Assembly (NCBI GenBank): GCA_020056225.1
Contig: JAGVIE010000030.1
Location: 42,492 to 106,491 of the forward strand
Direction of reading: 5' to 3'
Length of the DNA: 64,000 nucleotides
From: Bacteroidota bacterium
GTDB lineage: Bacteria; Bacteroidota; Ignavibacteria; UBA10030; SZUA-254
Shown here: piece after piece, positions 579-16,607 of the stretch
How positions within the stretch are numbered: position 1 is the first letter of the stretch
Layout: every line of letters starts with the position of its first letter
Translations under genes and position numbers: made by a program
Notes under the pieces: model-generated
The model's input: the letters and a program-made list of their open reading frames with translations, nothing else
What the model was told of the DNA's origin: nothing
The model's database searches: none

Positions 579-3482
579 TTATTTGAGAAGCAATACTTTT
601 TTAACTTGTGTGAACACTTTGCTTGGATCGGCAATGTTGATCGCCTCCAATTTGATAAAGTAAATGCCGCTCGTTGAACCTGAGGCATTCCATGTAACAG
701 ATTTGAACCCGGCTTCCTGGACTTCTTCTGCTAAAATTTCCGCAACTTGCCCGATGACATTATACACCTTCAATGTGACTCTACTGTCTACAGGCAATTG
801 GTAATTTATAACAGTTGATGGATTGAATGGATTAGGGAATGCATTTTCAAGACTGTATTTCGCCGGAATTTCTTTCGCATTGGTATTAATAAATGGAGGA
901 GGAGGAGGGAACTCGGATGTTGATTTAATTTTTACCTGTGATGAAGCCGATCCTGTTGAATTCAGCGATAAAATGAGTGAGCCGGATTGACTGACTTTTA
1001 CCCAGTAACCCAAGCCCGGATGGATGGAGTCGGCAACCCCGTAGCTGGATGAATATCCGAAAAATGCGCTCGTTATAATATCCGGAGGATCGCTCGTAAC
1101 ATTAGAAACTGGAATTGGTTCTGAGATTGAACCGATTAAATTCCATCCCTCCGCAACCCGGAATATTGCACTGAAGTTCGGGATGCCCTTCCATTGCACT
1201 TCAGTAGGCGAATTAAATTTTAACCAATAGCCTGCAAACTTTCGGAGAGTATCTAACGGAATATAAGAACTGCCTGAATAAGCATACGCTGATGATATCG
1301 AGGTCGGAAAGATACTGTCTTTATCTACACTCTCGGTATCAATTGGCACGGAAACCAGGTTCCACTGATCATTGAGTGTTATTGATAGTGTCCTCTGTGT
1401 CGTATCTATATAATTGACGAAGAGTCGGATATCATCGATATAGAATCCATCACGAGTAACATATCCATCGCTTCTAAGACGGAATCTTATCTTAAAATTC
1501 GATGAAGCATATTGAGATACATCCATCTCATCTTCTACCCATCCGCTTTTTATACCATCGTATCCAAATGTTCCTGTAACCTGTACACCGATTCCACTTG
1601 CAGGTCTTGTGTATTGACCGGAAACAGTTGACCAGTTCGCTCCACCATCTGAGGAAGCTTCTACGGTTGCAAAGTCCCAATCTGATTCAATATCCCATCT
1701 ACACCAAAATTTCAGATAAGCTTTATCAACATGATTAAGATTGATCGGGTAGATCGTTGTCATGCTGTTATCAACTAAATCGGGATAATTATCGTCGGGG
1801 CTATCGGTGAATGAATTAACCGGTGAGTGCGATATTGCTGACAAGCCCCATCCGGCATCAGTAGTCCAGGCAGTCATTCCGTTTTCAGCGCTGTCAGAAA
1901 ATGCCAGATGTAATTTTCCGATAAATATTTTAATCGTATCATACATGAATCGACCGGGCTGTTCGGTGATTTTTGTATATAGGTATTGGTCCCCCGCGAT
2001 GGCGTGTGAGCCGACAGAGCATGGGAGAGAGATTTCGTAATTCGTTAGCGAAGCCAGGGGAGGGATCGAATATGTACTTGCTGGAATTCGTATCGCTGTG
2101 CCCGATGTCGATACATCAAGAGATAGATTTTGCGCAGTTTCTAAACCTTTATTGCGAATCGAAAGATGAACGGTAAACGGTTCATTGTTTTCCAAAAATC
2201 CGTCACCGCTGCTGTCCTCGACGGAATATTGAAAAAGTCTCTGATAACTGCCGGCTACATTAGCCAAATATAAATTTTGATGCAGATTCTCTTGAGCAAT
2301 TGGAAGAATTCTATCGGATGAGGGCCAAAAGCCATCGGCTGAATTGCCGACTTCGGGTAGAAACGAGAAAATTTTATCTTTTGCAATCTGCTCGCCGTAC
2401 ATCCAGTCTGTAGCGCCTCCGTTTACAATATATAAACTTTGACCGCTTGGACCCGAGAAATAATGATTGTACTTTGTCATATCCTGACCATACTCTGCAA
2501 ACTGGGCAGAATCCGGCGATTCATAAAATGAAGTATGATCCCACGGATAAAGCAATAAATTACCATACGAGTGATAATTAAACGCAGTTTTGAAATTGTG
2601 TTCCATACAAAATAGAGCAACATTAAAAATTTCCGGCTCGCTAAATTCCGATGTTCCGCGATAAGTTTCAGAAGTAGGATACGGGCTTGATCCTGCATCA
2701 TCCAACCCCCACGTGTAACCGTAATTCCGATTTAAATCAATGCCATAAGAATCGTTATCGGTAACAACATTCCGCATATTTTTTCTTCGCATACCTCCAC
2801 CCGTTGGAGAGATTCTACGGTTCGCTTCATAACCATCAGCATTGATCACAGGAACAAAGTACATATGTCGATTATCAATTAAATAAGTTGCTTCCGGATC
2901 GCTTCCATAATTTTGCAGCAGGTGCCACATGAAATAAATCAAATTCATCATTCCTTGCGGTTCGCGTGCATGAGTAAGCGCAGTGTATAAAACTTCAGGC
3001 TTCGTTGAGGAGACATCGGCATCTTTTGTAATTCGCACTGCCCAGATATCCCGTCCCTGAAATGTATTTCCAATACTGAATTTTTCTGTAATTAAATTCG
3101 GGAATAAACTTCTCATCGAATCGAGCAAATGCACAACCTCATCAAAAGTATAATTCCCGCCCATACTGCCGTCTCCAAATCCGAGTGCATTATAAGGTCC
3201 CCTAATTAAACGTCGCGAAAAATATTTCGTCATGTCTTCAACTAATATCTGAGTTTGAAAACCGAGATTCTTAATATTGTCCAATTCTTCATTTGATATA
3301 GTTACTTCTACCCATCCGCCTATCTTACCGACCGCTCCTTCCATATCGATCCCGGTCGACAACAATTTCCTAAATAACAATTCATCGGGAATAAATACTT
3401 TAACCTTTTTATACAATTCAGTTGATAGCGTATTGGATATAATTATTATCAACATTGTTAAAAGTATTAGCGCTTTTTTCAT
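579..3482 (-). CDS. Secreted M14 zinc carboxypeptidase (carboxypeptidase T-like) with accessory beta domains and a T9SS-type C-terminal domain
   Basis: Motifs HAREP, DLNRNY, HSY and PEV. C-terminal NAFPNPFNPST...YFIKL...KKVLLLK. Signal-peptide start MKKALILL at 3482 (the ORF track extends to 3545). Confidence 0.9.
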   Translation of the reverse strand: MKKALILLTMLIIIISNTLSTELYKKVKVFIPDELLFRKLLSTGIDMEGAVGKIGGWVEVTISNEELDNIKNLGFQTQILVEDMTKYFSRRLIRGPYNALGFGDGSMGGNYTFDEVVHLLDSMRSLFPNLITEKFSIGNTFQGRDIWAVRITKDADVSSTKPEVLYTALTHAREPQGMMNLIYFMWHLLQNYGSDPEATYLIDNRHMYFVPVINADGYEANRRISPTGGGMRRKNMRNVVTDNDSYGIDLNRNYGYTWGLDDAGSSPYPTSETYRGTSEFSEPEIFNVALFCMEHNFKTAFNYHSYGNLLLYPWDHTSFYESPDSAQFAEYGQDMTKYNHYFSGPSGQSLYIVNGGATDWMYGEQIAKDKIFSFLPEVGNSADGFWPSSDRILPIAQENLHQNLYLANVAGSYQRLFQYSVEDSSGDGFLENNEPFTVHLSIRNKGLETAQNLSLDVSTSGTAIRIPASTYSIPPLASLTNYEISLPCSVGSHAIAGDQYLYTKITEQPGRFMYDTIKIFIGKLHLAFSDSAENGMTAWTTDAGWGLSAISHSPVNSFTDSPDDNYPDLVDNSMTTIYPINLNHVDKAYLKFWCRWDIESDWDFATVEASSDGGANWSTVSGQYTRPASGIGVQVTGTFGYDGIKSGWVEDEMDVSQYASSNFKIRFRLRSDGYVTRDGFYIDDIRLFVNYIDTTQRTLSITLNDQWNLVSVPIDTESVDKDSIFPTSISSAYAYSGSSYIPLDTLRKFAGYWLKFNSPTEVQWKGIPNFSAIFRVAEGWNLIGSISEPIPVSNVTSDPPDIITSAFFGYSSSYGVADSIHPGLGYWVKVSQSGSLILSLNSTGSASSQVKIKSTSEFPPPPPFINTNAKEIPAKYSLENAFPNPFNPSTVINYQLPVDSRVTLKVYNVIGQVAEILAEEVQEAGFKSVTWNASGSTSGIYFIKLEAINIADPSKVFTQVKKVLLLK

Positions 3483-3579
3483 CTTGATCTCTTTATGTTG
3501 GATTCTTAGAAAGACGATGGATTCTGAATTCATTGAATTTACCAAGAGATTCTATGAATGTCAAACTATACGAAAATCT

Positions 3580-3750: not shown

Positions 3751-4497
3751 ATGTCAATAGATTTGGAAAAAATCTTACGCCCTGTAGATATGGTATTGCC
3801 AGAGTTTCCCGCAAAATATATGACGCTTTCAAACGGCCAGGAAATGGTGGTACGGCAGGTCAACCGCGATGAGATTCCAGATATCCTTCCCCATGTGGAA
3901 AAGCTTATGCACGTCGAGCGGGATTATTATCACATAGTTGCGGCAAGAGTATATGCCGAATTGCTTGCTTACTACACGTACAGGGTACAAGATGAATATG
4001 TTCTCGCGGCGCAAGTCAACGGTGAAATTGTCGCCGTTGTAAACGGCAGAATAGTTAATCCGGATATCGGCATGTCGTTTCATACTTTATCAATGCGGCG
4101 TGGACTGCGAGTCGGCGCGCACGCGTTTGCCGCTAAAATGGAATATCACATCGATATACTAAAACAAAAAGAAGTTCTGATAGTTGCTGAATCACCAATC
4201 GGTTTTAGAAGATGGATGATTGAATACAAACTTGAAAAGCGTTTTCATATTCCACATGAATTAGGAGGATGCCCTTCATGGTCGTTAACAAAAGAATTGT
4301 TCGATAAAGCGCGAAACACTTTAGTTGTTGGACGTCGTCCTGTTCCAGAAAAGTTGCTTGCCAAAGCACACGCAGCAATTTTGCCCCCAACCGATCCGCC
4401 GAAAGCACCTGAAGATTTATTAGCCGCAACCCGATCGATGCTCGATAACACCGGCACTTCTCTCATCGATATGAGAAGAAAATTAGGAGGAATATAA
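3751..4497 (+). CDS. GNAT-fold protein of unknown function (first gene of the operon)
   Basis: 248 aa. Pattern VVRQV...YVLAAQVNGEIVAVVNG...HTLSMRRGLRVG resembles the GNAT beta2-beta4 strands and acyl-CoA-binding motif A. RBS AGAGG. Confidence 0.55.
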   Translation: MSIDLEKILRPVDMVLPEFPAKYMTLSNGQEMVVRQVNRDEIPDILPHVEKLMHVERDYYHIVAARVYAELLAYYTYRVQDEYVLAAQVNGEIVAVVNGRIVNPDIGMSFHTLSMRRGLRVGAHAFAAKMEYHIDILKQKEVLIVAESPIGFRRWMIEYKLEKRFHIPHELGGCPSWSLTKELFDKARNTLVVGRRPVPEKLLAKAHAAILPPTDPPKAPEDLLAATRSMLDNTGTSLIDMRRKLGGI

Positions 4498-4498
4498 T

Positions 4499-5674
4499 AT
4501 GAGAGAAGTTTATGTTGCTGGAATTGGCATTACAAGTTTCACGCGGCTTGAATATCCGCTCGTTGAAATTGCCGCATATCCGGGATTGATGGCTTTGCGT
4601 GATAGCGGACTTAAAAAAATCGATCAGCTTTACGTTGCCAATATGGGAAGCGGCAGAGTGAATACACAAACCGGTTTGGCAAGTGCGGTTGTTGATCATT
4701 TAAGTCTTACACCCGCGGGTGCAGTAACAATCGAAAACGGTCCTGCCTCTGGCGCCTCGGCAATCAAAGAAGGATTTATGGCTGTTGCATCGGGCATGCA
4801 CGATGTAGTCATGGTGATCGGTGCTGAGCGAATGAGAGAAGTCAATCAGTTGGAAGCAACAGATTTTGTAGCAACGCTCACTCATCCACTTGCAGAATAT
4901 ATTTACGGCGTAACACTTCCCTCTCTTGCTGGAATGTTCGCACGCTTGTACATGGAAAAGTATGGTGTTACTTCGCGGCATCTTGCAATGGTTGCGGTTA
5001 AAAATCATCACAACGCAATGGATAATTTCTATGCGCATCTACACGAAGAAATTACACTCGAAGGCATTCTTGATTCTCCCGAAGCATCTACCAATAATCC
5101 GTATGTTGCGGATCCGCTAAGATTCTACGATATGTGTCCTGTTTCAGACGGCGGCGCCTGTTTGATTCTTGCCAGCGCGGAGGTGATGAAGAAAATCAAC
5201 AAACCGATGATTCGACTTGCAGGTATCGGACAAGCAACTGATACGCATGCCGTACATGAGCGAAAAGATCCGACTGATCTTCTTGCGGTTCGTGAAGCAG
5301 CACGGCAATCTTTCGAAATGGCGAAAGTTAAACCACAAGATGTTAATGTAGCGGAACTACATGATGCTTTTACAATTCTTGAAATTGCGGAGAGCGAAGA
5401 AGTCGGTTTCTTTAAAAAAGGTGAAGGACATATCGCACTTGAAAAAGGTGAAACTAAAATCGGCGGTAAAATTCCGATTAATCCATCCGGCGGACTTAAA
5501 GCAAAAGGGCATCCCGTTGGCGCCACAGGCGTCGGTCAGGCGCATGAGATTGTTCTTCAGTTGCGCGGCGAAGCTAAGAAGCGGCAAGTGAAAAATGCGA
5601 AGATCGGATTCACATGCAACTTCGGCGGCTTTGGGAATAATGTTGTCTGTCTTACTTTTATAAAGGAGAACTGA
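4499..5674 (+). CDS. SCP-x/archaeal-type thiolase-fold protein lacking the nucleophilic Cys
   Basis: CPVSDGG, ELHDAFT and NPSGGLKAKGHPVGATG are present. ENGPASG replaces the canonical ExACASG. Confidence 0.9.
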   Translation: MREVYVAGIGITSFTRLEYPLVEIAAYPGLMALRDSGLKKIDQLYVANMGSGRVNTQTGLASAVVDHLSLTPAGAVTIENGPASGASAIKEGFMAVASGMHDVVMVIGAERMREVNQLEATDFVATLTHPLAEYIYGVTLPSLAGMFARLYMEKYGVTSRHLAMVAVKNHHNAMDNFYAHLHEEITLEGILDSPEASTNNPYVADPLRFYDMCPVSDGGACLILASAEVMKKINKPMIRLAGIGQATDTHAVHERKDPTDLLAVREAARQSFEMAKVKPQDVNVAELHDAFTILEIAESEEVGFFKKGEGHIALEKGETKIGGKIPINPSGGLKAKGHPVGATGVGQAHEIVLQLRGEAKKRQVKNAKIGFTCNFGGFGNNVVCLTFIKEN

Positions 5675-5676
5675 AA

Positions 5677-6024
5677 ATGGAATTAAATATATATGCATAC
5701 AAATGCAAACGCTGCGGTGAAATTCATTATCCTTATAAAACAATCTGCAAAAAATGCGGAGAGAACGATCATAACGAATTCGATATCGTGCCGCTTCCTA
5801 AAAAAGGAAAGCTATTAACCTTTACCATACTTCATAATCCTCCCTCTGATTATGAAGTTGTTACCTTATCGCTCGGCATTGTTGAATTAGAAGGTGGACA
5901 ACGAATCACCGGGCAATTGAACATCAAGAATCCGAAAATCGGGATGAATGTAGAAGGAAAAATAGAAATAGTCCGCAAAGAGGCATACAACAAACATTTA
6001 GGAATGGTGTTCTATCAGGCATGA
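5677..6024 (+). CDS. DUF35 Zn-ribbon/OB-fold protein (thiolase partner)
   Basis: CKRCG...YPYKTICKKCG followed by GKLLTFT...GIVELEGG. Lies immediately after the thiolase gene. Confidence 0.9.
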   Translation: MELNIYAYKCKRCGEIHYPYKTICKKCGENDHNEFDIVPLPKKGKLLTFTILHNPPSDYEVVTLSLGIVELEGGQRITGQLNIKNPKIGMNVEGKIEIVRKEAYNKHLGMVFYQA

Positions 6025-6845
6025 TAGAAATCGTCAGTCATGGAAATCAAATCCGCCGGGGTAAATATTATTTACATTCGAAATTTACTTCGGCGGTGAA
6101 TTTTTGTTCCGATGATTCTTTTGTTTTCGTTGTCAATAAAGAAGTCGGATCAGGACCGCTTAACATTGTAGTGCAAGGAGTTGCGGTAGATTCAGTCTCG
6201 TCTCTGGATGTCGGCAGTGATGGTTTCTATCTCAATGGAGATAAGTTTTGTATCGATGAGTTGAAGATATACGATTCTAAATTGCAGATATCCGACTTCA
6301 GCGAGAAAAAGTTTAAGCATAATCTAAGTTTCTTTGAATCAACTCTTATTGAATTCTCTCCACCGAAAAGTTTAGCGTTCCTTCTTGATGAAAGTAGAAA
6401 GAATGAATTCACATCATCGTTCGAGATTGAATACGTAAAGCGGTGTCAGAATGCCGTTCAATTATTTCTATCGGATGATTTTCTCAGTGGGATCAAGATG
6501 CTCAAGGGCTTAGGTCCCGGACTTACACCGAGCGGCGACGATTTTATTTCGGGAGTTCTGATTGCATTGAATCTACAAAGCATGATTAATTCGTTTGATA
6601 ATTCAAATATTATCAAACAGATATATGAAACGGTTGAAAGCAGAAATCATTTTACAACCGCATTTTTGAGATGCGCGGCAAATGGATTTCTGTTTGAAAA
6701 GTTTAAACAATTGATTGACTCCCTTATGCATGCTGGTGAAGATGAGATTATGCAGAACACGAGATCGTTATTTACAATAGGAGCAACATCCGGGGCAGAT
6801 CAAGCAGTCGGTTTTATCATTGGTATTAAAAGGTTTATACAATGA
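6021..6845 (+). CDS. DUF2877 family protein (YlbF/AllH/YahE-like)
   Basis: GLGPGLTPSGDDF and IGATSGAD motifs. Adjacent to fdrA. Confidence 0.85.
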   Translation: MIEIVSHGNQIRRGKYYLHSKFTSAVNFCSDDSFVFVVNKEVGSGPLNIVVQGVAVDSVSSLDVGSDGFYLNGDKFCIDELKIYDSKLQISDFSEKKFKHNLSFFESTLIEFSPPKSLAFLLDESRKNEFTSSFEIEYVKRCQNAVQLFLSDDFLSGIKMLKGLGPGLTPSGDDFISGVLIALNLQSMINSFDNSNIIKQIYETVESRNHFTTAFLRCAANGFLFEKFKQLIDSLMHAGEDEIMQNTRSLFTIGATSGADQAVGFIIGIKRFIQ

Positions 6846-8401
6846 ACATTATTGGAATAATTAAAAAGGGCGAGTACTACGACTCGATTTCCATCATGCT
6901 GATCGCAAAACATATTTCAGAAATGGAAGGTGTTGTCGATTCTGCCGTCGTGGTGGGAACAAAAGAAAACAAATCCATACTCACTTCTTCCGGTTTGATG
7001 ACACCCGATGTCCAACCGGCTGGAGAGATGGATCTCATCGTTGCACTCAAACTTAAAAATGGCATCGATTCAAAGAATGTTCTTTCAAAGATCGATGAGA
7101 TTTTTAAAGCGATGAAAAAATCGGATGACGGTGAGAATTTTACACCGCAAAGCATCAACGGCGCGTTAAATGTTTTACCGGATGCGAATATGGCAATGAT
7201 TTCCGTTGCAGGGCGATATGCCGGCGACGTTGCAATGAAATCGCTGCAACATGGATTGCATGTGATGCTCTTTTCCGATAATGTGCCGATTGAAAAAGAA
7301 ATCGAATTGAAAAAATTCGCTCGTGAGAAAAATCTGTTTGTCATGGGTCCCGATTGTGGAACAGCGATTATTAACGACATCCCGCTTGCGTTCGCAAATG
7401 TCGTTAACCGGGGGCATATCGGCATTGTTGCCGCTTCCGGGACAGGTTTGCAGGAAGTGAGCTGTTTAATCTCTAATGCGGGCTGTGGAATTTCTCAGGC
7501 AATCGGCACAGGCGGGCGAGATGTGAAAAAGGAAGTAGGCGGTATTATGTTCATCGAAGGAATGAAAGCTCTGGCAGCAGATCCTAACACGGATGTTATT
7601 CTCCTCGTTTCGAAGCCACCCGCAACGGAAATTGTGGAAAAGATAATTTCAGTCGCACGCGGAATTAAGAAACCAATTGTCGGTGTATTCCTCAGCGCAT
7701 CACCAAAACTTCTCGAGAGAAGCAACATCCGTCAGGCATTAACACTTGAAGAAGCGGCGATGCTTTCAGTTGCATACTCGAAAAAAGAAAATGCTTCTGC
7801 CGTTACTGATGTGTTGAAAAAACGCGAAGCCGAAATAATAAAGACAGCAAAAAAAGAAGCGGCGAAACTCTCTTCCGCTCAAAAATATCTCCGCGCACTG
7901 TACAGCGGCGGAACATTCTGCGACGAAGCGCAATTGCTTTGTCAAAACATTTTGGACGAAGTGTATTCCAATATTCCGTTTGGCAGCAGTAAAAAATTGA
8001 AGAACTCGTGGAAAAGCGAAAAGCATACGATTTTAGATCTGGGCGACGATGAATTTACAGTCGGGAAGCCACATCCGATGATTGACTACTCGACCCGCAA
8101 AAAGCGAATCCTTGCTGAAGCAAATAATCCCGAAACCGCTGTTATATTGCTGGATATTGTTCTTGGCTACGGTTCGAATATGAATCCGCTGGCGGAAATA
8201 ATTCCGGTAATAAAAGAGGTTAAGAAAATTACCGCTCAACAAAAACGATATGTACCGATCGTCTGCTCTGTAACCGGCACCGATAAGGACCCGCAGAACC
8301 GAGCCGCAGTTGTCACTGCACTCGAAGCGGAAGGCGTGAAGGTAATGGAATCGAACGCGGCGGCAAGCAGGTTGGCGATGTCAATCATATTCAATCATTA
8401 A
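6842..8401 (+). CDS. fdrA: FdrA/AllF acyl-CoA synthetase-like protein
   Basis: YYDSISIM, FSDNV, MGPDCGT, AASGTGLQE, GTGGRD, SGGTFCDEA and DLGDDEFTVGKPHPMID. Confidence 0.92.
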   Translation: MNIIGIIKKGEYYDSISIMLIAKHISEMEGVVDSAVVVGTKENKSILTSSGLMTPDVQPAGEMDLIVALKLKNGIDSKNVLSKIDEIFKAMKKSDDGENFTPQSINGALNVLPDANMAMISVAGRYAGDVAMKSLQHGLHVMLFSDNVPIEKEIELKKFAREKNLFVMGPDCGTAIINDIPLAFANVVNRGHIGIVAASGTGLQEVSCLISNAGCGISQAIGTGGRDVKKEVGGIMFIEGMKALAADPNTDVILLVSKPPATEIVEKIISVARGIKKPIVGVFLSASPKLLERSNIRQALTLEEAAMLSVAYSKKENASAVTDVLKKREAEIIKTAKKEAAKLSSAQKYLRALYSGGTFCDEAQLLCQNILDEVYSNIPFGSSKKLKNSWKSEKHTILDLGDDEFTVGKPHPMIDYSTRKKRILAEANNPETAVILLDIVLGYGSNMNPLAEIIPVIKEVKKITAQQKRYVPIVCSVTGTDKDPQNRAAVVTALEAEGVKVMESNAAASRLAMSIIFNH

Positions 8402-8420
8402 TCAATTGAAAGGAAGAAAC

Positions 8421-9176
8421 ATGTTTAATCAAAAGAAATATTTTGAAGTAAATCGAGAAGAAAGACATTTCGGATTTATACTGCTTTCCGAGGTGCTCAA
8501 CAACGACGAGTTTCGAAATCGATTGTTTAGTATTATTAATGAAAAGCTCTTTTGCAACTTAAATCCAAATGATTTCGAAATTTATTCCGAGGTAGCTGCA
8601 CTGCGGGATTATTTCTTCGATCTTGGTGATAGCATCATCTATACAAAATCAACCCATCAAAAAAGATTCGAACTTTTATCTAAAATCTTATCTTCAGTTG
8701 GATATCCCGAACTCGATATCAATTCGCACGATGTTTTCTGGACAACAAAAAATCTTGAAACCAGAAAACTTTGGTCTCCTAGTAATTGGAATATAGAAGA
8801 GATCAAAAAACTTGAGAAACGAGAAAATGATTTAGTATCAATACGATGGTGTTTTAATGCAAAACCTGATTTCATGATAGACTGCCATAATCACGTAGTC
8901 TTTCTAGAATTGAAGGTAGAATCAGGCGAAGGAGCTAATGAATTTGGATATAGTCAGTTTGAAATTCAAAAGAAAATATCTGATTTTATGAAATTGCTAA
9001 TACCAGAGTACCAAAACTCTACTTTCTTTCACACAACATTGCAACTCAAATCAGAACATGGCAACTTGAGTTGGAAGGAAGTTGTCGATCTCTTAGATTT
9101 ATGCCGTCGTGATAGTATTGCATACAAGAATGTTCAGAACTCATTAAAACAACTCTTACGCTATTACAACAAATGA
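8421..9176 (+). CDS. Hypothetical protein, putative PD-(D/E)XK nuclease
   Basis: KPDFMI...FLELKVESGE motif. Visibly AT-richer than its neighbours. ATG 8421 follows AGGAAG (the track starts at TTG 8406). Confidence 0.6.
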   Translation: MFNQKKYFEVNREERHFGFILLSEVLNNDEFRNRLFSIINEKLFCNLNPNDFEIYSEVAALRDYFFDLGDSIIYTKSTHQKRFELLSKILSSVGYPELDINSHDVFWTTKNLETRKLWSPSNWNIEEIKKLEKRENDLVSIRWCFNAKPDFMIDCHNHVVFLELKVESGEGANEFGYSQFEIQKKISDFMKLLIPEYQNSTFFHTTLQLKSEHGNLSWKEVVDLLDLCRRDSIAYKNVQNSLKQLLRYYNK

Positions 9177-10579
9177 CCCATCTATTTCAAACCGAACTCA
9201 AAGTTGTCAACATCGGACTCAAGTCGTTCAAAGAAACACTCGACCAACAAAATGTGAAATCGGTCCACGTCGATTGGCGACCGCCACTCTTCACCGACGA
9301 TAAAGCGATGTCGATAATCAAATCGAATGCCGGTAAAATTGAAGCGGCGAACAAACAAGCGCTTCAAAAAATCCTCAACAGCAAACCGTTCATTGTCGGA
9401 ATGGGAAAAGCACTCGACGTTGTTCCCGGGATGAAGAAAAACCTTCTTCTTCACGCAGGTCCGCCGGTTACGTGGGACAAAATGTGTGGTCCGATGCGTG
9501 GCGCCGTCATAGGCGCACTGATCTACGAAGGTATTGCCGGCACTCCCGAAAAAGCTGAGCAGGTTGCCGCCTCGGGTCAAATCGAATTTTCTTCGTGTCA
9601 TGAGCATTCGGCAGTCGGACCGATGGCGGGAATCGTCTCGCCATCGATGCCGGTATTCATTCTACAGAACGAAGAATACGGCAACAAAGCGTACTGCACC
9701 ATGAACGAAGGTCTCGGCAAGGTTCTCAGGTATGGCGCATTTTCTCCGGATGTTATTGAGCGATTGAAATGGATGGAGCAGGTTCTTTATCCATCTCTCA
9801 AGCGGGCGATAGAAAAAATCGGCAAGATTGATTTGAAAAATATCATTGCGCAAGCGCTACAGATGGGAGATGAAGTTCACAATCGGAACAGAGCCGCAAC
9901 ATCTCTCCTATATCGAACGCTTGCCCCTGCCGTCATCCAAACGACGGACGATAAAGAAATTGCGGCAAGCGTACTCGAATTCATCAACCGAAACGATCAT
10001 TTCTTCCTCAATCTTTCGATGGGCGCATCGAAAATTTCATTGGATGCCGCTAGGAACATCACCCACTCAAGTATTGTTGTAGTAATGGCAAGGAATGGAA
10101 CTGAGTTCGGCGTACAACTTTCGGGAACGGGAGATCAGTGGTTTACAGGTCCATCACCAGTTCCGGATGCGCTCTTCTTCACGGGCTTCACAAAAGAAGA
10201 CGCGAATCCCGATATTGGCGACAGCTCAATAACCGAAACAAATGGTTTGGGCGGCTTCGCAATCGCGGCTTCACCTGCAATCGTACAGTTTGTCGGTGGC
10301 TCAACGAAAGATGCGATCAATTATACATTAAAAATGTACGAGATAACCGCCGCAGAAAATAACATCTACAAAATCCCGTACCTCAATTTCCGCGGTACAC
10401 CAACAGGTATTGATCTTCTAAAAGTTGTGGAAAAGAATATTCTTCCGTTTATTGATACAGGTGTCGCGCATAAAAATGCCGGCATCGGACAAATTGGTGC
10501 AGGTGTGTTAAGCGCACCTGTTGAACCATTTGTAAAAGCGATTGTTGGATTAGCAAATCAAATTAAGTCGAAGAAATAA
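9173..10579 (+). CDS. DUF1116 family protein (YlbE/AllG/YahG-like) with an N-terminal FdrA-tail-like segment
   Basis: LLHAGPP, CHEHSAVGPMAG, NEGLGKVLRYGA, MGDEVHNRN, MARNG and DIGDSSITET. Confidence 0.9.
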   Translation: MTHLFQTELKVVNIGLKSFKETLDQQNVKSVHVDWRPPLFTDDKAMSIIKSNAGKIEAANKQALQKILNSKPFIVGMGKALDVVPGMKKNLLLHAGPPVTWDKMCGPMRGAVIGALIYEGIAGTPEKAEQVAASGQIEFSSCHEHSAVGPMAGIVSPSMPVFILQNEEYGNKAYCTMNEGLGKVLRYGAFSPDVIERLKWMEQVLYPSLKRAIEKIGKIDLKNIIAQALQMGDEVHNRNRAATSLLYRTLAPAVIQTTDDKEIAASVLEFINRNDHFFLNLSMGASKISLDAARNITHSSIVVVMARNGTEFGVQLSGTGDQWFTGPSPVPDALFFTGFTKEDANPDIGDSSITETNGLGGFAIAASPAIVQFVGGSTKDAINYTLKMYEITAAENNIYKIPYLNFRGTPTGIDLLKVVEKNILPFIDTGVAHKNAGIGQIGAGVLSAPVEPFVKAIVGLANQIKSKK

Positions 10580-10693
10580 TAGCCCCGACATTCATGTCGG
10601 GGACAAGATTATGCATTGAAAATCGCGATAGATAGCCCCGATCTTTAGATCGGGGAATAATTGGTAAGAAGATTGATTGGTTTCAACCAAAAT
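10579..10693. repeat. REP-like palindromes left of the Y1 transposase
   Basis: ATAG-CCCCGACAT-TC-ATGTCGGGG (10579-10602), ATAG-CCCCGATCT-TT-AGATCGGGG (10632-10655) and a companion hairpin TTGGTTTCAACCAA near 10677-10690. Confidence 0.85.
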
Positions 10694-10707
10694 ATAAAGG
10701 AGGATAA

Positions 10708-11142
10708 ATGTCATATATCAAGATTATGGTGCATTTAATCTGGTCGACAAAAAACAGAGAAGCGGTAATCCGGAACGAATTAAAAGATGCGTTGTTAGAT
10801 CATATAAAAGAAAACAGCATACAAAAAGGAATATTTATCGACACATTTAATTGTGTAGCTGACCATATACACATGCTGGTTTCATTAGGATCCGAACAAA
10901 CCGTCAGTAAAATTGTGCAATTAATAAAAGGTGAATCTTCCCACTGGTTAAATGAACAGCATATACTGAAGGGTAGATTCGAATGGCAAGACGATTATTT
11001 TGCCACTTCTGTGAGTGAATCGATGATCGATAAAGTAAGAGAATATATTAGCAATCAAGAAGAGCATCACAGAATAAAATCGTTTGCTGAAGAGTACGAT
11101 GAGTTTATGAATAAATATGGATTCAAAACGATTGCTGAGTAA
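10708..11142 (+). mobile_element. tnpA: IS200/IS605-family Y1 transposase, REP-associated (RAYT-like)
   Basis: HLIWSTKNRE, HUH motif DHIH, KGESS, FEWQDDY and catalytic Tyr in EYISNQEEHH. Flanked by REP-like palindromes. No tnpB. Confidence 0.92.
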
Positions 11143-11143
11143 G

Positions 11144-11386
11144 TTTTGACTAAAGTCAAATACCTTTTATATTCTATACCCCGACCTAAAGGTCGGGGCT
11201 AATAAAGGGTATTCAACCCCAGAGCAAGCTCTGGACTCTTTTTCCGTAGCAAGCTACGGGGTATTGAGCCCAGAAAAGAATAAATGTCGGGGATAAATAA
11301 AAAGAGAAATAGATAAAATGTTCAAACTAATAGCCCCGATCTTCAGATCGGGGTACAATGAAAAGTTAGAAATTGGCTTTAGCCAC
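11144..11386. repeat. REP-like palindromes right of the Y1 transposase
   Basis: TTTGACTAAAGTCAAA (~11145-11160); inverted REP CCCCGACCT-AA-AGGTCGGGG-CTAA (11179-11202); half REP ATGTCGGGG (11284-11292); ATAG-CCCCGATCT-TC-AGATCGGGG (11330-11353); TGGCTTTAGCCA (11374-11385). Confidence 0.85.
11207..11284. repeat. Second type of short palindromic element nested in the REP cluster (IS200/IS605-end or MITE-like)
   Basis: Hairpins CCAGAGC-AA-GCTCTGG (11219-11234) and CCGTAGC-AA-GCTACGG (11244-11259), framed by GGGTATTCAACCC and GGGTATTGAGCCC. Confidence 0.6.
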
Positions 11387-11452
11387 AACTTCCAAATATT
11401 ATCGGAAATGAAATTTTAGATTTGTCCATCAATCAAATAAAGGATCAATAAA

Positions 11453-12280
11453 ATGAAAACACAAGAATTTTTAAATTTCATGGACAGACTCAAAGTCTAC
11501 GATCTCACTCAGCGACTTAGCATTCACACACCACCGTGGCCCAGTTATATGCCGTTCGGTATTCAATATTTCAAACGGATAGCCGGTGCACACATGGGGC
11601 AAGGAGCAAACGGACAAATCATCACGACGAGTAATCATGTCGGCACACATATGGATGGCGAGATTCATTTTCATGCTTCCGGTCGGTCGATCGGAAATGT
11701 TCCGATGAACGAATGGATCGGCCAGGGTGTTGTAGTTGATATATCGAAAGAAGTCGGCGACTACGATTTATACACACCTGAGATGCTGATGAAAAAAGTC
11801 GAGATAAAAAAAGGTGACATACTCATCATCAACACCGGCTACAACCGTTACGCGTGGGATCAGAAAGGTTCTGATGAGATTCGATATTTCGTAAAGCACC
11901 CCGGACCGGGACCCGGTTTCCACAAGTGGGCGCTTGAGATGAAAATTAAATGGATTGGCGTCGATTGCGGAAGCGCAGATCATCCGATGAACACCATTAT
12001 TCGTCAATGGCATCCCGCCCGATTTACTGAAGCCGAAGCGAAACTGAAGCGAAAGTACGGCGTGGGGTCGTGGGACGAAATGTTTCCGCAGGATGAATAT
12101 TATCAGGTTATGCACCTGAAACTGTTCCCGAAAAAATTGGTGCATGCTGAAAACCTTGGTGGCGATATTAACAAGCTGAGCAACAAACGCTGTTGGATAG
12201 GATGCTTCCCGTTGAGAGGCATCGAGTTAGAATCAGCGATGTGCCGTATTGTTGCATTTTTACCACCGAATGGAAAATAA
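11453..12280 (+). CDS. Cyclase family metal-dependent amidohydrolase (kynurenine formamidase/isatin hydrolase-like)
   Basis: HVGTHMDGEIHF (HxGTHxD), GDILIINTG, WIGVD and HAENL. Confidence 0.88.
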   Translation: MKTQEFLNFMDRLKVYDLTQRLSIHTPPWPSYMPFGIQYFKRIAGAHMGQGANGQIITTSNHVGTHMDGEIHFHASGRSIGNVPMNEWIGQGVVVDISKEVGDYDLYTPEMLMKKVEIKKGDILIINTGYNRYAWDQKGSDEIRYFVKHPGPGPGFHKWALEMKIKWIGVDCGSADHPMNTIIRQWHPARFTEAEAKLKRKYGVGSWDEMFPQDEYYQVMHLKLFPKKLVHAENLGGDINKLSNKRCWIGCFPLRGIELESAMCRIVAFLPPNGK

Positions 12281-12298
12281 TTTTTTGGAGAATTCAAA

Positions 12299-13186
12299 GT
12301 GCCAATAATTCATAAATTCGATTATCTAAAACCAAAAAGCTTAAGCGAGGCATTAACGGTTCTTGCACAATCAAAGAACGCGGCAATACTTGCAGGCGGC
12401 ACCGATCTCGTTGATATGATAAAAGAAAATGTTGCTCAGCCCGACTTGGTAGTAGATATCAAAGGACTTGACGAGCTCAATCAGATTAAGTTTGAGAATG
12501 ATACACTTTTCATCGGGGCAGGTGCCACGTTTTCAGATTTGATCGAATCGAAAATCATTAAAGAAAAATATCCCGTAATCTTTGAGGTAGCCAAAACAGT
12601 TGCGTCAGTCGGAATTCGAAACAGAGCAACGGTTGTCGGCAACATATGCTCGGCAGTACCGTGCATGGATAGTGGCCCGTTACTTATAGCATATGATGCA
12701 ACCGTGCAATTGGCAGGACAAAAAGGTGAAAGAAAGATTCCCGCTGCTGAATGGTTCATTGCACCAAGAAAAACAGCGCTTCAAAAAGGTGAAATTGTTA
12801 CAGGTGTTTCGTTACCGTATCCGAAAGTGAAACATGCCGGATGCTGGGTAAAGCTTGGTCGTTATACCGGTGAAGACCTTGCACAGGTGAACTTGCTTAT
12901 ACTCGCGTTGAGTGATGGTACATTCAGGATTTCGTTCGGGGCGGTTGTACCTATTCCGGTACGCGCGAAAAAGATTGAGAAACTTTTAAACGGACAAACA
13001 ATTACTCCTTCCTTGATTGAGAAAGCAAAGCAGTTGATTGAGGAAGAAATCAAACCGATAACCGATGTACGCGCGACAAAAGAGTACCGGATACACATGG
13101 CAAAGGTGATGTTCGAGAGAGGATTGGATGCCGCGATTAGGAGATTAAACGGCAACGGTCAGGCGTATGGAACGAGTATGATATAA
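12299..13186 (+). CDS. Xanthine dehydrogenase-family FAD-binding subunit (CoxM-like)
   Basis: AGGTDL, IRNRATVVGN and PITDVRATKEYR. Confidence 0.93.
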   Translation: MPIIHKFDYLKPKSLSEALTVLAQSKNAAILAGGTDLVDMIKENVAQPDLVVDIKGLDELNQIKFENDTLFIGAGATFSDLIESKIIKEKYPVIFEVAKTVASVGIRNRATVVGNICSAVPCMDSGPLLIAYDATVQLAGQKGERKIPAAEWFIAPRKTALQKGEIVTGVSLPYPKVKHAGCWVKLGRYTGEDLAQVNLLILALSDGTFRISFGAVVPIPVRAKKIEKLLNGQTITPSLIEKAKQLIEEEIKPITDVRATKEYRIHMAKVMFERGLDAAIRRLNGNGQAYGTSMI

Positions 13187-13190
13187 GGAA

Positions 13191-13652
13191 ATGACAATGA
13201 GACAAGAAATTAAATTCAAATTAAGCGGTGAAGCGATTGCGCTCGAGGTCAATCCGAACGAAGTTCTACTCGAAGTATTGCGTGATCGTCTCGGGGCAAA
13301 AAGTCCGAAGTGCGGCTGCGATAAAGGTGATTGCGGCACATGCACGGTGATGATCAACGGAAAAACGGTCCGCAGTTGTCTTGTGCTTGCCATTGAAGTT
13401 GATGGACAGGAAGTTGTTACACTTGAAGGACTTATGGACAGCGGTTTAACGCCACTCCAGAAATCGTTCATCGAACATAATTCGTTTCAATGCGGCTTCT
13501 GCGCACCGGGGATGATTCTTTCCGCGACAGAGCTTCTCGCGAAGAATCAAAAACCGAACAAGCACGAAATTCAGGAAGCGCTATCCGGCAATTTATGCAG
13601 GTGCACGGGTTATACTCCCATCATCGATGCTATTGAGGCGATTACAAAATGA
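13191..13652 (+). CDS. Xanthine dehydrogenase-family 2x[2Fe-2S] subunit (CoxS-like)
   Basis: GCDKGDCGTCT, SCL, QCGFC and GNLCRCTGY. Confidence 0.95.
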   Translation: MTMRQEIKFKLSGEAIALEVNPNEVLLEVLRDRLGAKSPKCGCDKGDCGTCTVMINGKTVRSCLVLAIEVDGQEVVTLEGLMDSGLTPLQKSFIEHNSFQCGFCAPGMILSATELLAKNQKPNKHEIQEALSGNLCRCTGYTPIIDAIEAITK

Positions 13653-13658
13653 CATTGA

Positions 13659-13732
13659 TGTCATTCCGATCCCGCCGAGGGCGGGAGAGGAATCTGACAA
13701 TAAAAGATGCTTCACTTTCGTTCAGCATGACA
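13659..13732. repeat. Intergenic palindromic element with TGTCAT...ATGACA termini
   Basis: TGTCATTCCGATCCCGCCGAGGGCGGGAGAGGAATCT...AGATGCTTCACTTTCGTTCAGCATGACA, with internal hairpin TCCCGCC-GAG-GGCGGGA. Confidence 0.65.
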
Positions 13733-13758
13733 AAGAGATATTATAGGATTAAAGGTTT

Positions 13759-16095
13759 ATGGAAGAAAATAAATACATTGGCAAGTCAACAGTCAGGATA
13801 GACGGAAAAGCAAAAGTATCCGGCGCGGCAGAATTCATAGACGATCTTGATTTCGGTCCCGATCTCCTCTACGCCGCAATAGTCGAGAGTAAATTCGCGC
13901 ACGCCATCATCAACAAAATCGATACAAGCGAAGCGGAGAATATACCCGGCGTTGTAAAGATTGTTACAGGAAAAGATTTCCCGTTCCGGTTCGGACTTTA
14001 CATGCACGATCGATTCATCTTTGCTCAGGATAGAGTAAGATTTGTCGGAGAACAGATCGGCGCTGTGATAGCGAGAGATGCGGCAACTGCATTGAAAGCG
14101 GCAAAGTTAGTGAGAGTAGATTACACAGAACTTCCGGCAATTCTCAACGTCGAGCAGGCACTCGCGAAAGATGCGAACCTCATTCACCCTGAACTTCGAC
14201 ATTACAAACACGTTCCGTGGTTCTTCCCCAAAAGCGACACGAATATTGCCCATCTTAGAAAAGTTAGAAAAGGTGATGTCGAGAAAGCTTTTAAGGAATC
14301 CGATTTTATTTTTGAAGATACATACACTGTTCCCCGTTATGCGCACTGTGCAATCGAAGTCCACGGCGCGGTTGGTTTGTACGATAATTCAGACCGACTG
14401 ACAGTTTGGACGGCATCTCAATCTCCATATACACAAAGAAACCTGTTTGCGGAAGCGCTTGCACCTCTCGGATTGTCACATAAAGATATTCGGGTTATAA
14501 CGCCGTTCATCGGCGGTGGTTTTGGCGGTAAAGCCGGTGTCTCGATGGAAATATTAGGCGCCGCTCTCGCAACAGCAGTAAAAGGCCGCCCAGTCAAAGT
14601 TCTCTGGTCGCGCGCGCAGGAATTTTACAACACATACCAACGGCAAGGTCTGACTGCCCGCATCAAAGTCGGCTTGAAAAAAGACGGTACCATCATCGCG
14701 ATGGATAATATTTTAAATTGGGACGCAGGCGCGTACGTCGAGTATGGCGCGAACGTCGTCAATGCCGCGGGACTCTCTGCTTCAGGTCCATACAATATTC
14801 CAAACGTCAGCATAGATTCAGTTTGTGTCTATACCAATCTGCCACCGGGCGGGCCATACCGTGGATTCGGGTATTCCGAATTTTTATTCGGACTTGAATC
14901 TCATTTAAATGAGATTGCAAAGAAAATGAAGATCGATCCGATCCAACTTCGTCGTAAGAATGCAATTCGTGAAGGAGATATTTTAAATTACGGCGGCAAG
15001 ATGAACGCCAACGGTCTGATTGAGGCGATTGATAAAGTTGAGAAAGAAATCGAATGGGGAAAGAAGGAAACATCGAGCGATCCGAACAAGGCAATCGGTA
15101 AAGGAATTGCATTATTCTGGAAAGCGCCCGCTATGCCGCCGAACGCTTCATCCTCTGCGTTTTTAAAATTCAATGAAGACGGAAGCATAAACATTCTTAT
15201 CTCCGGAATGGAGATAGGTCAAGGACTATTGACAGTCATGGCACAAATCGCGGCTGAAGTACTAACTGTTCCTCCAGAAAAAATACGTGTTGAAACACCG
15301 GACACTGATAGAAATCCTTATGAATGGCAAACGGTCGGCTCGCATGTTACGTGGGGATGCGGCAGAGCGGTCGAGAGCGCGGCTATAGATGCTCGTGAGC
15401 AGATTTTTGATATTGTCGAGCGGGCACTCGGCAAAGACAGAAAATCACTTTATCTTGAAAACGAATCCGTGAAATCGAAAACAGATAATAATTTCTCGTT
15501 AAAGCTGTGCGATTTTATTATTGCTGGGATTCAGAAACCAGATGGCTCATATCGTGGAGGACCGATACTCGGACGCGGAATGTTCATGCCGGAATTCACA
15601 TCAGCATTGAGCGACCCTGAAACAAGTCAGGGTGGGCATCCAAATGTTCATTACACAGTCGGCGCAAGCGCAGTTAAGATTGAAGTCGATAAGCAGACAG
15701 GCAAAGTGAAAATTCCCAAAGTGGTTCTTGCTGTCGATGTCGGAAAAGCGCTCAACCCCGATTTAATCAACGGACAAATTACAGGTGGATTGCTACAAGG
15801 AATCGCTACTGTCCTTTATGAGGATATGCGGTTCAACAACAAAGGTAAACTCATCAATCCAAACTTTACAGATTATAAAATTCCGACATCGATGGATATC
15901 CCCGATGAGATAGTTCCGATTATCATAGAAGTACCTCAACCCGATGGACCTTCCGGCGCACGCGGAGTTGGCGAACACACGATGATACCATGCGCACCGA
16001 TGATTGCTAACGCTGTTGATGATGCGCTTGGAATCAGGATCAAATCGATGCCGATAACGGCGGAGAAGATTGCGCTCAGCGTAAAACACTCATAA
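13759..16095 (+). CDS. Xanthine dehydrogenase-family molybdopterin-binding subunit (not a CO dehydrogenase)
   Basis: GGGFGGK, YRGFG, EIGQG and GARGVGE (catalytic Glu). No AYxCSFR CoxL loop. Confidence 0.93.
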   Translation: MEENKYIGKSTVRIDGKAKVSGAAEFIDDLDFGPDLLYAAIVESKFAHAIINKIDTSEAENIPGVVKIVTGKDFPFRFGLYMHDRFIFAQDRVRFVGEQIGAVIARDAATALKAAKLVRVDYTELPAILNVEQALAKDANLIHPELRHYKHVPWFFPKSDTNIAHLRKVRKGDVEKAFKESDFIFEDTYTVPRYAHCAIEVHGAVGLYDNSDRLTVWTASQSPYTQRNLFAEALAPLGLSHKDIRVITPFIGGGFGGKAGVSMEILGAALATAVKGRPVKVLWSRAQEFYNTYQRQGLTARIKVGLKKDGTIIAMDNILNWDAGAYVEYGANVVNAAGLSASGPYNIPNVSIDSVCVYTNLPPGGPYRGFGYSEFLFGLESHLNEIAKKMKIDPIQLRRKNAIREGDILNYGGKMNANGLIEAIDKVEKEIEWGKKETSSDPNKAIGKGIALFWKAPAMPPNASSSAFLKFNEDGSINILISGMEIGQGLLTVMAQIAAEVLTVPPEKIRVETPDTDRNPYEWQTVGSHVTWGCGRAVESAAIDAREQIFDIVERALGKDRKSLYLENESVKSKTDNNFSLKLCDFIIAGIQKPDGSYRGGPILGRGMFMPEFTSALSDPETSQGGHPNVHYTVGASAVKIEVDKQTGKVKIPKVVLAVDVGKALNPDLINGQITGGLLQGIATVLYEDMRFNNKGKLINPNFTDYKIPTSMDIPDEIVPIIIEVPQPDGPSGARGVGEHTMIPCAPMIANAVDDALGIRIKSMPITAEKIALSVKHS

Positions 16096-16127: not shown

Positions 16128-16607
16128 ATGTCAGAAGATAATCGAGCACGGATGATAAAGCTTGCAGAAGAGTTTTTCAACATGAAAAACGATCCGACAC
16201 AGCTTTCTGTCGATGAGAATACCATGAAACGCCTCTTAGAAATTCATCCAGCCACACTCACAGAGTGAACCGATGAGAATGGACCAATCGCCTGGATGTT
16301 AATCATTCCAACAACAAAAGAAGTGATGGATGATTTCCTCTTAAAGAAAATCACTGAAAAGGAAATCTTAGACCGCACACCGCATGGTGTAAAATACGAT
16401 TCAATCTATTTGTGCTCAGCGCTTGTATTGCCCGAATATCGTGGTAAGGGATTGGCAAAACAAATGGTGACAGATGCAATTCAATCAATCATGAATCAGC
16501 ATTCCATCAAATCTCTATTTGTGTGGTCTTTCAGCATAGAAGGAAAAAAATTGGCTAATGCAGTTGCCAAAGAATTCAACCTGCCGTTATTCGAAAAACC
16601 AGTTTAA
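16128..16607 (+). pseudogene. GNAT acetyltransferase interrupted by an in-frame TGA at 16266-16268
   Basis: ATG 16128 is in frame with the 16296-16607 ORF: MSEDNRARMIKLAEEFF...HPATLTE*TDENGPIAWMLIIPTT...VLPEYRGKGLAK. Confidence 0.7.

Follow-up and report, generated by a model that had tools for sequence, protein, structure and literature searches.

A ten-gene cassette in a 64,000-nucleotide stretch of DNA from a Bacteroidota bacterium (Ignavibacteria; GenBank assembly GCA_020056225.1, contig JAGVIE010000030.1, positions 42,492 to 106,491 of the forward strand; hereafter the window) would, in our reading, direct an oxygen-independent oxidative catabolism of uracil or thymine with phosphorolytic cleavage of the resulting ureide. 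The cassette unites a three-subunit molybdenum hydroxylase of the xanthine dehydrogenase (XDH) family, a cyclase-family amidohydrolase, a DUF2877/FdrA/DUF1116 trio homologous to AllFGH and YahEFG of E. coli, and a module of GNAT-fold, thiolase-like and DUF35 proteins, and it appears to have spread horizontally. We infer every step from family chemistry and gene context, and place the probability of this reading at roughly 0.4.

In the proposed route, the FAD/FeS/Mo hydroxylase would add a water-derived hydroxyl group beside a ring nitrogen, converting uracil to barbiturate without O2. A metal-dependent amidohydrolase, either the cassette cyclase or an enzyme of the dihydropyrimidinase type whose gene lies beside the cassette or elsewhere, would open this cyclic ureide to ureidomalonate. 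The trio and phosphate would then split the N-acylurea into carbamoyl phosphate and malonamate, in the manner of AllFGH acting on oxalurate, and a carbamate kinase encoded at C52 could convert the carbamoyl phosphate to ATP, NH3 and CO2. In the weakest step, the C3 remainder may pass to the cyclase or an accessory amidase and to the optional GNAT/Cys-less thiolase-like/DUF35 module, which may yield acetyl-CoA by a CoA-dependent decarboxylation or by cleavage of a C-C bond.

A ten-gene cassette shared by many phyla

The original prediction, made from the sequence of the window, described ten co-oriented, mostly overlapping or abutting genes with two insertions. A listing of open reading frames (ORFs) together with Pfam and NCBIfam scans confirmed this arrangement: ten genes on the + strand with abutting or overlapping ends span window positions 3751-16095, and neighbours are spaced by -4 to +18 nt except at a 106-nt gap 5' of the Mo subunit gene and at the two insertion sites. 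Pfam and NCBIfam assign families to nine of the ten cassette proteins.

3751..4497, +, GNAT-fold protein of 248 aa, cassette gene 1 (AlphaFold2 with Foldseek/VIA)
4499..5674, +, thiolase-like protein, nucleophilic Cys replaced by Pro (Thiolase_N/C domains)
5677..6024, +, DUF35 protein, zinc ribbon and OB fold (PF01796, PF12172)
6021..6845, +, DUF2877 subunit of the trio, AllH/YahE-like (PF11392, E 1e-23)
6842..8401, +, FdrA-type subunit, AllF/YahF-like, succinyl-CoA-synthetase-alpha-like fold (NCBIfam FdrA subfamily, 503.8 bits; cut-off 433)
8406..9176, +, orphan ORF of 256 aa, an insertion outside the cassette proper (no Pfam/NCBIfam family)
9173..10579, +, DUF1116 subunit of the trio, AllG/YahG-like (PF06545, E 1.6e-100)
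10583..11353, no strand assigned, IS200/IS605-type insertion outside the cassette proper (tnpA 10708-11142, PF01797 / NF033573)
11453..12280, +, cyclase-family metal-dependent amidohydrolase (PF04199, E 1e-33)
12299..13186, +, FAD-binding subunit of the XDH-family hydroxylase (PF00941, PF03450)
13191..13652, +, [2Fe-2S] subunit of the XDH-family hydroxylase (PF01799, PF00111)
13759..16095, +, molybdopterin (Mo) subunit of the XDH-family hydroxylase (PF01315, PF02738, PF20256)

A scan with a cyclase alignment, taking one genome per species, recovered at least 545 relatives, of which the best 80 loci were analysed. Gene counts by tblastn, from loci in which many contigs end within the cassette, gave the cyclase in 80, the FAD subunit in 73, AllG in 67, the FeS subunit in 66, FdrA in 60, the Mo subunit in 59, AllH in 46, the GNAT-fold protein in 39, and the thiolase-like and DUF35 proteins in 35 each. 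The gene order GNAT, thiolase-like, DUF35, AllH, FdrA, AllG, cyclase, FAD, FeS, Mo is near-invariant, and three genomes (G001, G016 and G012) hold all ten genes in identical order. By the names of the sequence records, the 80 loci represent at least ten phyla, with Ignavibacteria/Bacteroidota, Verrucomicrobiota, Lentisphaerae, Kiritimatiellae, Elusimicrobiota, Oligoflexia, Bdellovibrionales, Acidobacteriota, Gemmatimonadota, Zixibacteria, KSB1, Thermodesulfobacteriota and other groups among them. The ten genes form one unit, in an arrangement far beyond chance, and their co-conservation, which the original prediction had proposed as a check, supports its general proposal of an undescribed N-heterocycle pathway. 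Neither a description of the cassette nor a characterised pathway onto which it maps was found in the literature searched, supplementary gene-cluster tables lying outside that search.

Several cassette proteins are 77-99% identical across loci, and between phyla the thiolase-like protein retains 77-86% and the cyclase 79-86% identity. Occurrence is patchy nonetheless, with the cassette in 10 of 41 relatives and in 3 of the 251 genomes of a class-wide sample. High identity across phyla combined with this patchy distribution indicates that the cassette is under strong constraint and has spread horizontally. A second type (G025, G033), which is more divergent, runs FAD-FeS-Mo-AllH-FdrA-AllG-cyclase, lacks the GNAT, thiolase-like and DUF35 genes and ends in an amidase gene. 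Clustering of all ORFs across the 80 loci revealed no conserved transporter or regulator. According to the record names, the hosts appear to be uncultured and their genomes come mostly from sediment, groundwater and peat metagenomes.

The hydroxylase and the cyclase

The hydroxylase possesses the FAD, 2x[2Fe-2S] and Mo-pterin subunits that place it in the XDH family, and the catalytic Glu of the Mo subunit (GVGEHT) is kept and does not vary when the sequences are aligned with E. coli XdhA. Assignment to a characterised branch of the family failed on every score. All NCBIfam equivalogs for the Mo subunit, including XdhA (527 versus a cut-off of 780, and 505 versus 916), and all those for the FAD subunit fell under their cut-offs, as did the 4-hydroxybenzoyl-CoA reductase equivalogs (alpha 511.5 versus 994.55, beta 122.5 versus 404.55 and gamma 151.9 versus 257.8 bits). 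The best PDB match of the Mo subunit was nevertheless the alpha subunit of 4-hydroxybenzoyl-CoA reductase (1rm6_A) at 339.6 bits, the next match scoring 255. The motif GGxFGGK is followed by Ala (GGGFGGK-A) in the window and in two further loci (L015, L041), in contrast to the Asp (GGSFGGK-D) of a second, purine-type Mo enzyme in the same genome; we take this position to correspond to bovine Glu802, with its role in purine binding. Given the Ala in place of an acidic residue and the scores below cut-off, we rejected an assignment as canonical xanthine dehydrogenase.

The cyclase is the most conserved gene of the cassette, with 79-99% identity in the best 80 of the at least 545 relatives. Its metal motif HVGTHMDGEIH, which conforms to HxGTHxDxxxH and contributes H62, H66, D68 and H72, is invariant and aligns to that of kynurenine formamidase (4cob). 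The relatives in the PDB, kynurenine formamidase and isatin hydrolase, are distant, and the arylformamidase equivalog scored 53 against a cut-off of 223 bits, indicating that the cyclase is not an arylformamidase. Two further candidates were set aside: a Rhodococcus ruber cyclase (37% identity), judged a paralogue in an aromatic dioxygenase/nitrilase context, and a match in Haloarcula sp. GH36 (H8), which has a different gene context.

The trio and carbamoyl phosphate

The original prediction called three of the genes AllFGH homologues. The three families are indeed the same and are encoded together as in AllFGH, but the proteins are no closer to AllFGH than to YahEFG. The FdrA subunit, which carries CoA_binding and CoA-ligase domains (PF02629, PF00549), is 41% identical to YahF and 38% to AllF; the DUF1116 subunit is 47% identical to YahG and 44% to AllG; and the DUF2877 subunit, poorly conserved among the loci (25-88%), is 21% identical to AllH and 25% (partial) to YahE. 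Both the order DUF2877-FdrA-DUF1116 and the protein lengths match YahE-YahF-YahG rather than AllF-AllG-AllH. All 18 sequences compared, E. coli AllF and YahF among them, share His411 of the FdrA motif GxxHPMID. Unlike either E. coli trio, the cassette trio is encoded in one operon together with a cyclase and a Mo hydroxylase, and in contrast to AllFGH it has neither an in-operon carbamate kinase (allK) nor adjoining allantoin genes (allECD). A plasmid locus of Rhodococcus sp. JS3073 was discarded as a relative, since tblastn found a DUF1116 homologue (40%) and no other cassette gene there.

As described in the available text of PMC11326118, purified E. coli AllFGH catalyses the reversible reaction of oxalurate and phosphate to oxamate and carbamoyl phosphate, is co-transcribed with carbamate kinase, and provides a route that urease-negative bacteria need for recovering ureido nitrogen. 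For E. coli YahEFG, no function was found in the literature searched. Both E. coli trios are followed by carbamate kinase (for YahEFG, a carbamate-kinase-like gene), and so is the trio of Peptoclostridium acidaminophilum, which has the closest DUF1116 homologue in a cultured organism (55% identity). There the array reads PucR, xanthine permease, isochorismatase-type hydrolase, xanthine permease, DUF2877, FdrA, DUF1116 and carbamate kinase. These contexts link the trio family both to nucleobase-derived ureides and to carbamoyl phosphate. The P. acidaminophilum operon, a compact and uncharacterised plasmid locus (L112:5748-16351) of a cultured anaerobe, is itself a good system for finding the substrate of the trio.

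The prediction had also remarked on the lack of carbamate kinase and allantoin genes nearby. This holds for the window, in which Pfam/NCBIfam scans (E<=1e-40 for 21-64 kb) found neither carbamate kinase nor allantoin-pathway genes, but not for the genome: an arcC-equivalog carbamate kinase lies at C52:31532-32470, flanked by the genes for ornithine and aspartate carbamoyltransferase. That the operon lacks the kinase is therefore no argument against carbamoyl-phosphate chemistry, and the link of such trios to carbamate kinase is preserved here at genome level. The C52 enzyme may take part in anabolic as well as catabolic carbamoyl-phosphate flow. Carbamate kinase scored above cut-off in 10 of 10 cassette-bearing relatives versus 16 of 31 others, and in three of five distant cassette-bearing genomes, the remaining two giving weaker matches. 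The urease alpha domain was not found in this 100%-complete genome (the control was detected in 5 of 14 genomes), which suits carbamoyl-phosphate recovery through carbamate kinase. At the same locus (C52:29263-33387, L018), a 442-aa ORF without NCBIfam match precedes the kinase gene.

Gene context points to pyrimidines

The most direct lead on the substrate comes from loci in which dihydropyrimidinase adjoins the cassette. The equivalog TIGR02033 (647 and 594 bits; cut-off 393) occupies this position in G011 (L034) and G033, and a Bdellovibrionales locus has a dihydropyrimidinase-like amidohydrolase there. In G011 the cassette lies between this dihydropyrimidinase and a PreT-PreA pair (PreA equivalog 643 bits, cut-off 335). 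PreA is also distributed in a complementary manner: canonical PreA (at least 558 bits) occurs in one of 10 cassette-bearing relatives versus 17 of 31 others, and in the cassette-free relatives it usually lies about 2 kb from dihydropyrimidinase. Dihydropyrimidinase itself is retained in 8 of the 10 cassette-bearing relatives. This complementarity suggests that the cassette takes the place of the reductive entry step. The class-wide sample, with 3 positives among 251 genomes, held too few to extend the comparison.

A second lead comes from cultured hosts. Cyclase homologues of 44-48% identity are encoded on haloarchaeal megaplasmids, and the seven loci inspected have as neighbours XDH-family Mo/FeS/FAD genes (5/7), a dihydropyrimidinase-like amidohydrolase (5/7) and NCS2/SLC23 nucleobase permeases (6/7). 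In Halostagnicola larsenii, genes for a cytosine deaminase and a cytosine permease directly follow the cyclase. A CocE/NonD-family hydrolase also stands beside the cyclase in all seven haloarchaeal loci (L107, L109, L110, L111, L114, L115 and L116) and has no counterpart in the bacterial cassette.

The accessory genes and the chemistry would suit the same substrate. Amidase-signature genes accompany the cassette in L015, L016 and five Verrucomicrobiota loci, and a family III CoA-transferase in L016 and two haloarchaeal records; malonamidase is an amidase-signature enzyme, and these amidases and the CoA-transferase would suit malonamate and malonate. Chemically, ureidomalonate is the one-carbon homologue of oxalurate, and we would expect it to be an N-acylurea of the kind that AllFGH cleaves.

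The oxidative pyrimidine pathway of Rhodococcus and related aerobes employs uracil/thymine dehydrogenase, barbiturase and ureidomalonase. The proposed route would share with it the hydroxylation of uracil, the opening of a cyclic ureide and the splitting of an N-acylurea. In contrast to that pathway, the ring hydrolase would be of the cyclase-family or dihydropyrimidinase type instead of an AtzD/TrzD-type barbiturase, phosphorolysis of the ureide to carbamoyl phosphate would take the place of its hydrolysis to urea, and the hosts are apparently uncultured bacteria. No gene for uracil/thymine dehydrogenase was found in the literature searched. PF09663 (AtzD/TrzD barbiturase) was not found in this genome, the control being undetected in all 14 genomes.

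The GNAT, thiolase-like and DUF35 module

The 248-aa product of the first gene has no Pfam GNAT match by sequence. Its AlphaFold2 model (pLDDT 75.7), however, gave only GNATs as top Foldseek matches (probability 1.0) and superimposed on the CoA-bound GNAT PA3270 with a VIA Z score of 13.8 and a root-mean-square deviation of 2.9 Å over 166 residues. The predicted GNAT identity is borne out by this modelled fold; the protein belongs to a small orphan family with putative CoA binding. That family counts 166 representatives at E<=1e-3 among 1.84 billion entries, and the gene is present in 39 of the 80 loci at 37-98% identity, all but one at 68% or more. Neither malonyl-CoA decarboxylase nor a CurA-type decarboxylating GNAT was among the 50 VIA matches or the Foldseek matches listed, which does not in itself speak against either activity.

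The thiolase-like protein is 77-99% identical across phyla, scores 415 bits against NCBIfam PRK06064 (cut-off 420) and finds its best PDB match in an archaeal thiolase (7yvy; E 8e-79, about 45% identity). The predicted loss of the nucleophilic Cys proved correct: ENGPASG aligns to EAACASG of 7yvy, placing Pro at the nucleophile. Among 32 homologues, ENGPASG is kept in 31 (the 32nd is N-terminally truncated), HDAF in all 32 and KGHPVGATG in 30. We rejected a true, Claisen-type and Cys-dependent thiolase on the basis of Pro for Cys in every complete homologue; the replacement excludes classical thiolysis despite the strong constraint on the protein. The DUF35 protein, a customary partner of thiolase-like proteins, has the four-Cys zinc ribbon (C10, C13, C24 and C27, invariant in 12 sequences) and OB fold of its family. 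Its gene occurs in 35 of the 80 loci, always with the thiolase-like gene, and the three-gene module is present in about half of the loci, four loci holding the GNAT without the other two.

A predicted complex of the GNAT with the thiolase-like/DUF35 pair scored 0.50, versus 0.00 for the best of three controls. Scores at least this high came from 58 of 80 solved complexes and from 2 of 110 mismatched pairs; of these, only 7 of the 80 solved complexes, and both mismatches, lay at or below 0.60. The prediction runs shared at least 57% of contacts, with a partner pLDDT of at least 77. Together these values lend weak support to a complex in which the GNAT would be the third partner. Scaffolded thiolase/DUF35 assemblies and Cys-less thiolase-fold aldolases or decarboxylases offer the base for an analogy; examples are the archaeal thiolase-HMGCS-DUF35 complex, BbsAB, PhlABC and the Cys-less aldolase Ltp2 with ChsH2-DUF35. 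Like these assemblies, the cassette pairs a thiolase-fold protein with a DUF35 zinc-ribbon/OB protein, but Pro takes the place of the nucleophilic Cys, and the partner has the GNAT fold of an orphan family instead of being HMGCS or KAS III. By this analogy, the module may decarboxylate the C3 remainder or cleave a C-C bond in it in a CoA-dependent manner, the least secure step of the route. The acyl-CoA role that the original prediction gave these genes is best regarded as speculation, the module being optional and present in about half of the loci.

Weighing the alternatives

Several observations weigh against uracil or thymine as the substrate. Dihydropyrimidinase adjoins the cassette in only about 5 of some 88 loci, and the PreA contrast, drawn among kin, amounts to a lead and falls short of a statistical test. 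The haloarchaeal Mo subunit is 25-27% identical to that of the cassette, leaving only the cyclase shared at orthologue level. None of the 88 bacterial loci examined holds a nucleobase transporter, cytosine deaminase or carbamate kinase; three NCS2/SLC23 queries against this genome drew no match at E<=1e-10, and purines are among the substrates of NCS2 permeases as well. The barbiturase described in the literature belongs to another family, AtzD/TrzD. The closest solved relative of the Mo subunit is the reductase named above, and the GNAT/thiolase-like/DUF35 module, missing from about half of the loci, has no clearly defined place in a uracil route. Substrate and pathway steps alike are matters of inference.

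A purine-derived or other cyclic ureide (xanthine/isoxanthine-, hydantoin- or parabanate-type) is an unlikely substrate by our estimate, yet it is the serious rival. In such a scheme, operating beside or downstream of a uric-acid cluster, the Mo enzyme would oxidise the ring, the cyclase would yield oxalurate or a similar N-acylurea and the trio would act as an oxamate-type carbamoyltransferase. The one trio characterised in the available text of PMC11326118 does act on oxalurate, a purine product, and neighbours in Peptoclostridium and the haloarchaea are annotated as xanthine or NCS2 permeases. A further argument comes from the reductive uric acid pathway, described in the available text of PMC12507026 as XdhD-YgfM/YgfK/SsnA/HyuA/YgeW/YqeA/YgeY/YgeX. 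Cassette-bearing Ignavibacteria have a cluster of this type with Mo/FAD/FeS genes, a YgfK-like fusion, an SsnA-like amidohydrolase, a pyridoxal-phosphate (PLP) enzyme, an M20 peptidase and a gene resembling ornithine transcarbamylase (OTC). An SsnA-like gene (at least 50% identity) is found in 6 of 10 cassette-bearing relatives versus 1 of 31 others and, at 46-60% identity, in three of five distant cassette-bearing genomes; a YgfK-like frame of about 840 aa occurs in seven genomes, all cassette-bearing. Given this co-occurrence, the dihydropyrimidinase could be the hydantoinase of the uric-acid pathway, a further point against pyrimidines. To us the co-occurrence looks like two nucleobase pathways kept by a single scavenger, and it may only reflect a scavenging lifestyle. 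The cassette Mo subunit, moreover, lacks the acidic residue after GGxFGGK, the window has no allantoin-pathway gene, and the PreTA/dihydropyrimidinase embedding, the complementary PreA distribution and the Halostagnicola cytosine deaminase and permease all favour pyrimidines over purines. The cassette itself resembles the reductive uric acid pathway in its XDH-family enzyme, in cyclic amidohydrolases and in a phosphorolytic ureide cleavage coupled to carbamate kinase. It differs in that ring opening would fall to the cyclase instead of SsnA/HyuA and carbamoyl transfer to the trio instead of the OTC-fold YgeW, and in lacking the YgfK-type reductase, PLP lyase and M20 peptidase.

Degradation of a (hetero)aromatic acid through its CoA thioesters strikes us as improbable. 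The Mo enzyme would then resemble 4-hydroxybenzoyl-CoA reductase or furoyl-CoA dehydrogenase, FdrA would be of the acyl-CoA synthetase type, and the thiolase-like, DUF35 and GNAT proteins would perform a beta-oxidation-like or aldol-type C-C cleavage. The lead of the reductase alpha subunit among solved relatives of the Mo subunit, the CoA-related domains of FdrA, the usual handling of acyl-CoA by GNAT, thiolase-like and DUF35 proteins, and an AMP-forming ligase gene 5' of the cassette in four Ignavibacteria loci are all in keeping with this view. The reductase equivalog scores are far under cut-off, however, the only trio reaction tested in the available text of PMC11326118 is CoA-free, the CoA-related module is absent from about half of the loci while Mo subunit, cyclase and trio persist, and the recurring neighbours are ureide and nucleobase enzymes rather than aromatic-CoA enzymes. 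More improbable still is that the cassette is a patchwork of independent modules, carried by one mobile segment without serving a common pathway: patchy distribution, selfish insertions inside the operon and the optional module would fit this view, but the seven core genes keep a stable order from phylum to phylum and also in the rearranged second type (G025, G033), start and stop codons abut or overlap, and conservation is very high.

Oxidative catabolism of uracil or thymine thus remains our preferred reading. Of the original pyrimidine proposal, the part supported by dihydropyrimidinase/PreTA adjacency, PreA complementarity and the haloarchaeal neighbours has stood, and on gene context pyrimidines are the best-supported candidate substrate; the purine-derived ureide persists as a serious rival. 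A more ambitious version, an undescribed anoxic oxidative pyrimidine fermentation, is doubtful: here the hydroxylase would be the orphan uracil/thymine dehydrogenase, the barbiturase would have been replaced, the trio would be a 'malonamate carbamoyltransferase' that conserves ATP, a GNAT/thiolase-like/DUF35 complex would deliver acetyl-CoA and the whole would have spread horizontally.

Insertions and neighbouring genes

Both insertions are selfish elements that interrupt the operon. The orphan ORF at 8406-9176, in which G+C is locally lowered to 0.38, has matches in 0 of the 80 related loci and 0 of 7 loci of relatives, and by eye its product resembles a PD-(D/E)xK nuclease. The IS200 transposase (10708-11142) matches in 1 of the 80 loci, and two similar GC-rich hairpins flank tnpA (10583-10602 and 11334-11353). 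At this site of the cassette the element is absent from G001, G016, G011 and G012 and present in G023. In the sister genome G001, FdrA adjoins AllG and AllG adjoins the cyclase, with neither insertion. Intergenic sites of the operon gather selfish genes in this lineage: G023 (L017/L020) has other ORFs between FdrA and AllG, at the site of the orphan ORF of the window, and a second such site lies between cyclase and FAD subunit, where two genomes have a Dam-like methyltransferase and a 242-aa ORF (compare L017/L020 and L022). A 103-aa GNAT fragment at 16296-16607 was rejected as a cassette member; it occurs in 1 of the 80 loci and is a remnant. Promoter and terminator scans returned counts near shuffle expectation apart from the two hairpins flanking the insertion sequence, and a search for RNA from 11453-16095 found at most 0.18 of the sampled words in each of 20 runs.

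On the other flank, a large secreted M14 carboxypeptidase with a type IX secretion system (T9SS) sorting tail is encoded at window 579-3545 (-); the neighbour is kept in this genome, G001 and G016 (68-80% identity), within this genus group only. At window 29197-32971, an MttB-family (trimethylamine methyltransferase-like) protein, a corrinoid protein and a homocysteine/tetrahydrofolate-type methyltransferase form a set that resembles a quaternary-amine or glycine-betaine demethylation system.

Elsewhere in this genome (G000), a second XDH-family cluster of reductive uric-acid make-up lies at C10:68000-88000 (L102; also L104, L105 and L106). Its YgfK-like frame is split by a TAA stop, T9SS-tail, DUF5677 and YhcG-nuclease genes interrupt it, and a close SsnA orthologue was not found in the genome. 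This uric-acid-type copy may be decaying.

Implications

What is new here, tentatively, is the combination of oxidative pyrimidine chemistry with AllFGH-type ureide phosphorolysis in a single cassette. For the AllFGH/YahEFG trio family, one reaction is characterised in the available text of PMC11326118. The proposal also gives the orphan GNAT family and the Cys-less thiolase-like/DUF35 pair a function that can be tested. In cultured haloarchaea, genes for cytosine and nucleobase transport lie next to the cyclase/Mo-hydroxylase core, which makes these organisms a tractable experimental system. Overall, a cassette so strongly conserved in at least ten phyla suggests a common, unrecognised use of nucleobases for nitrogen, carbon and possibly ATP.

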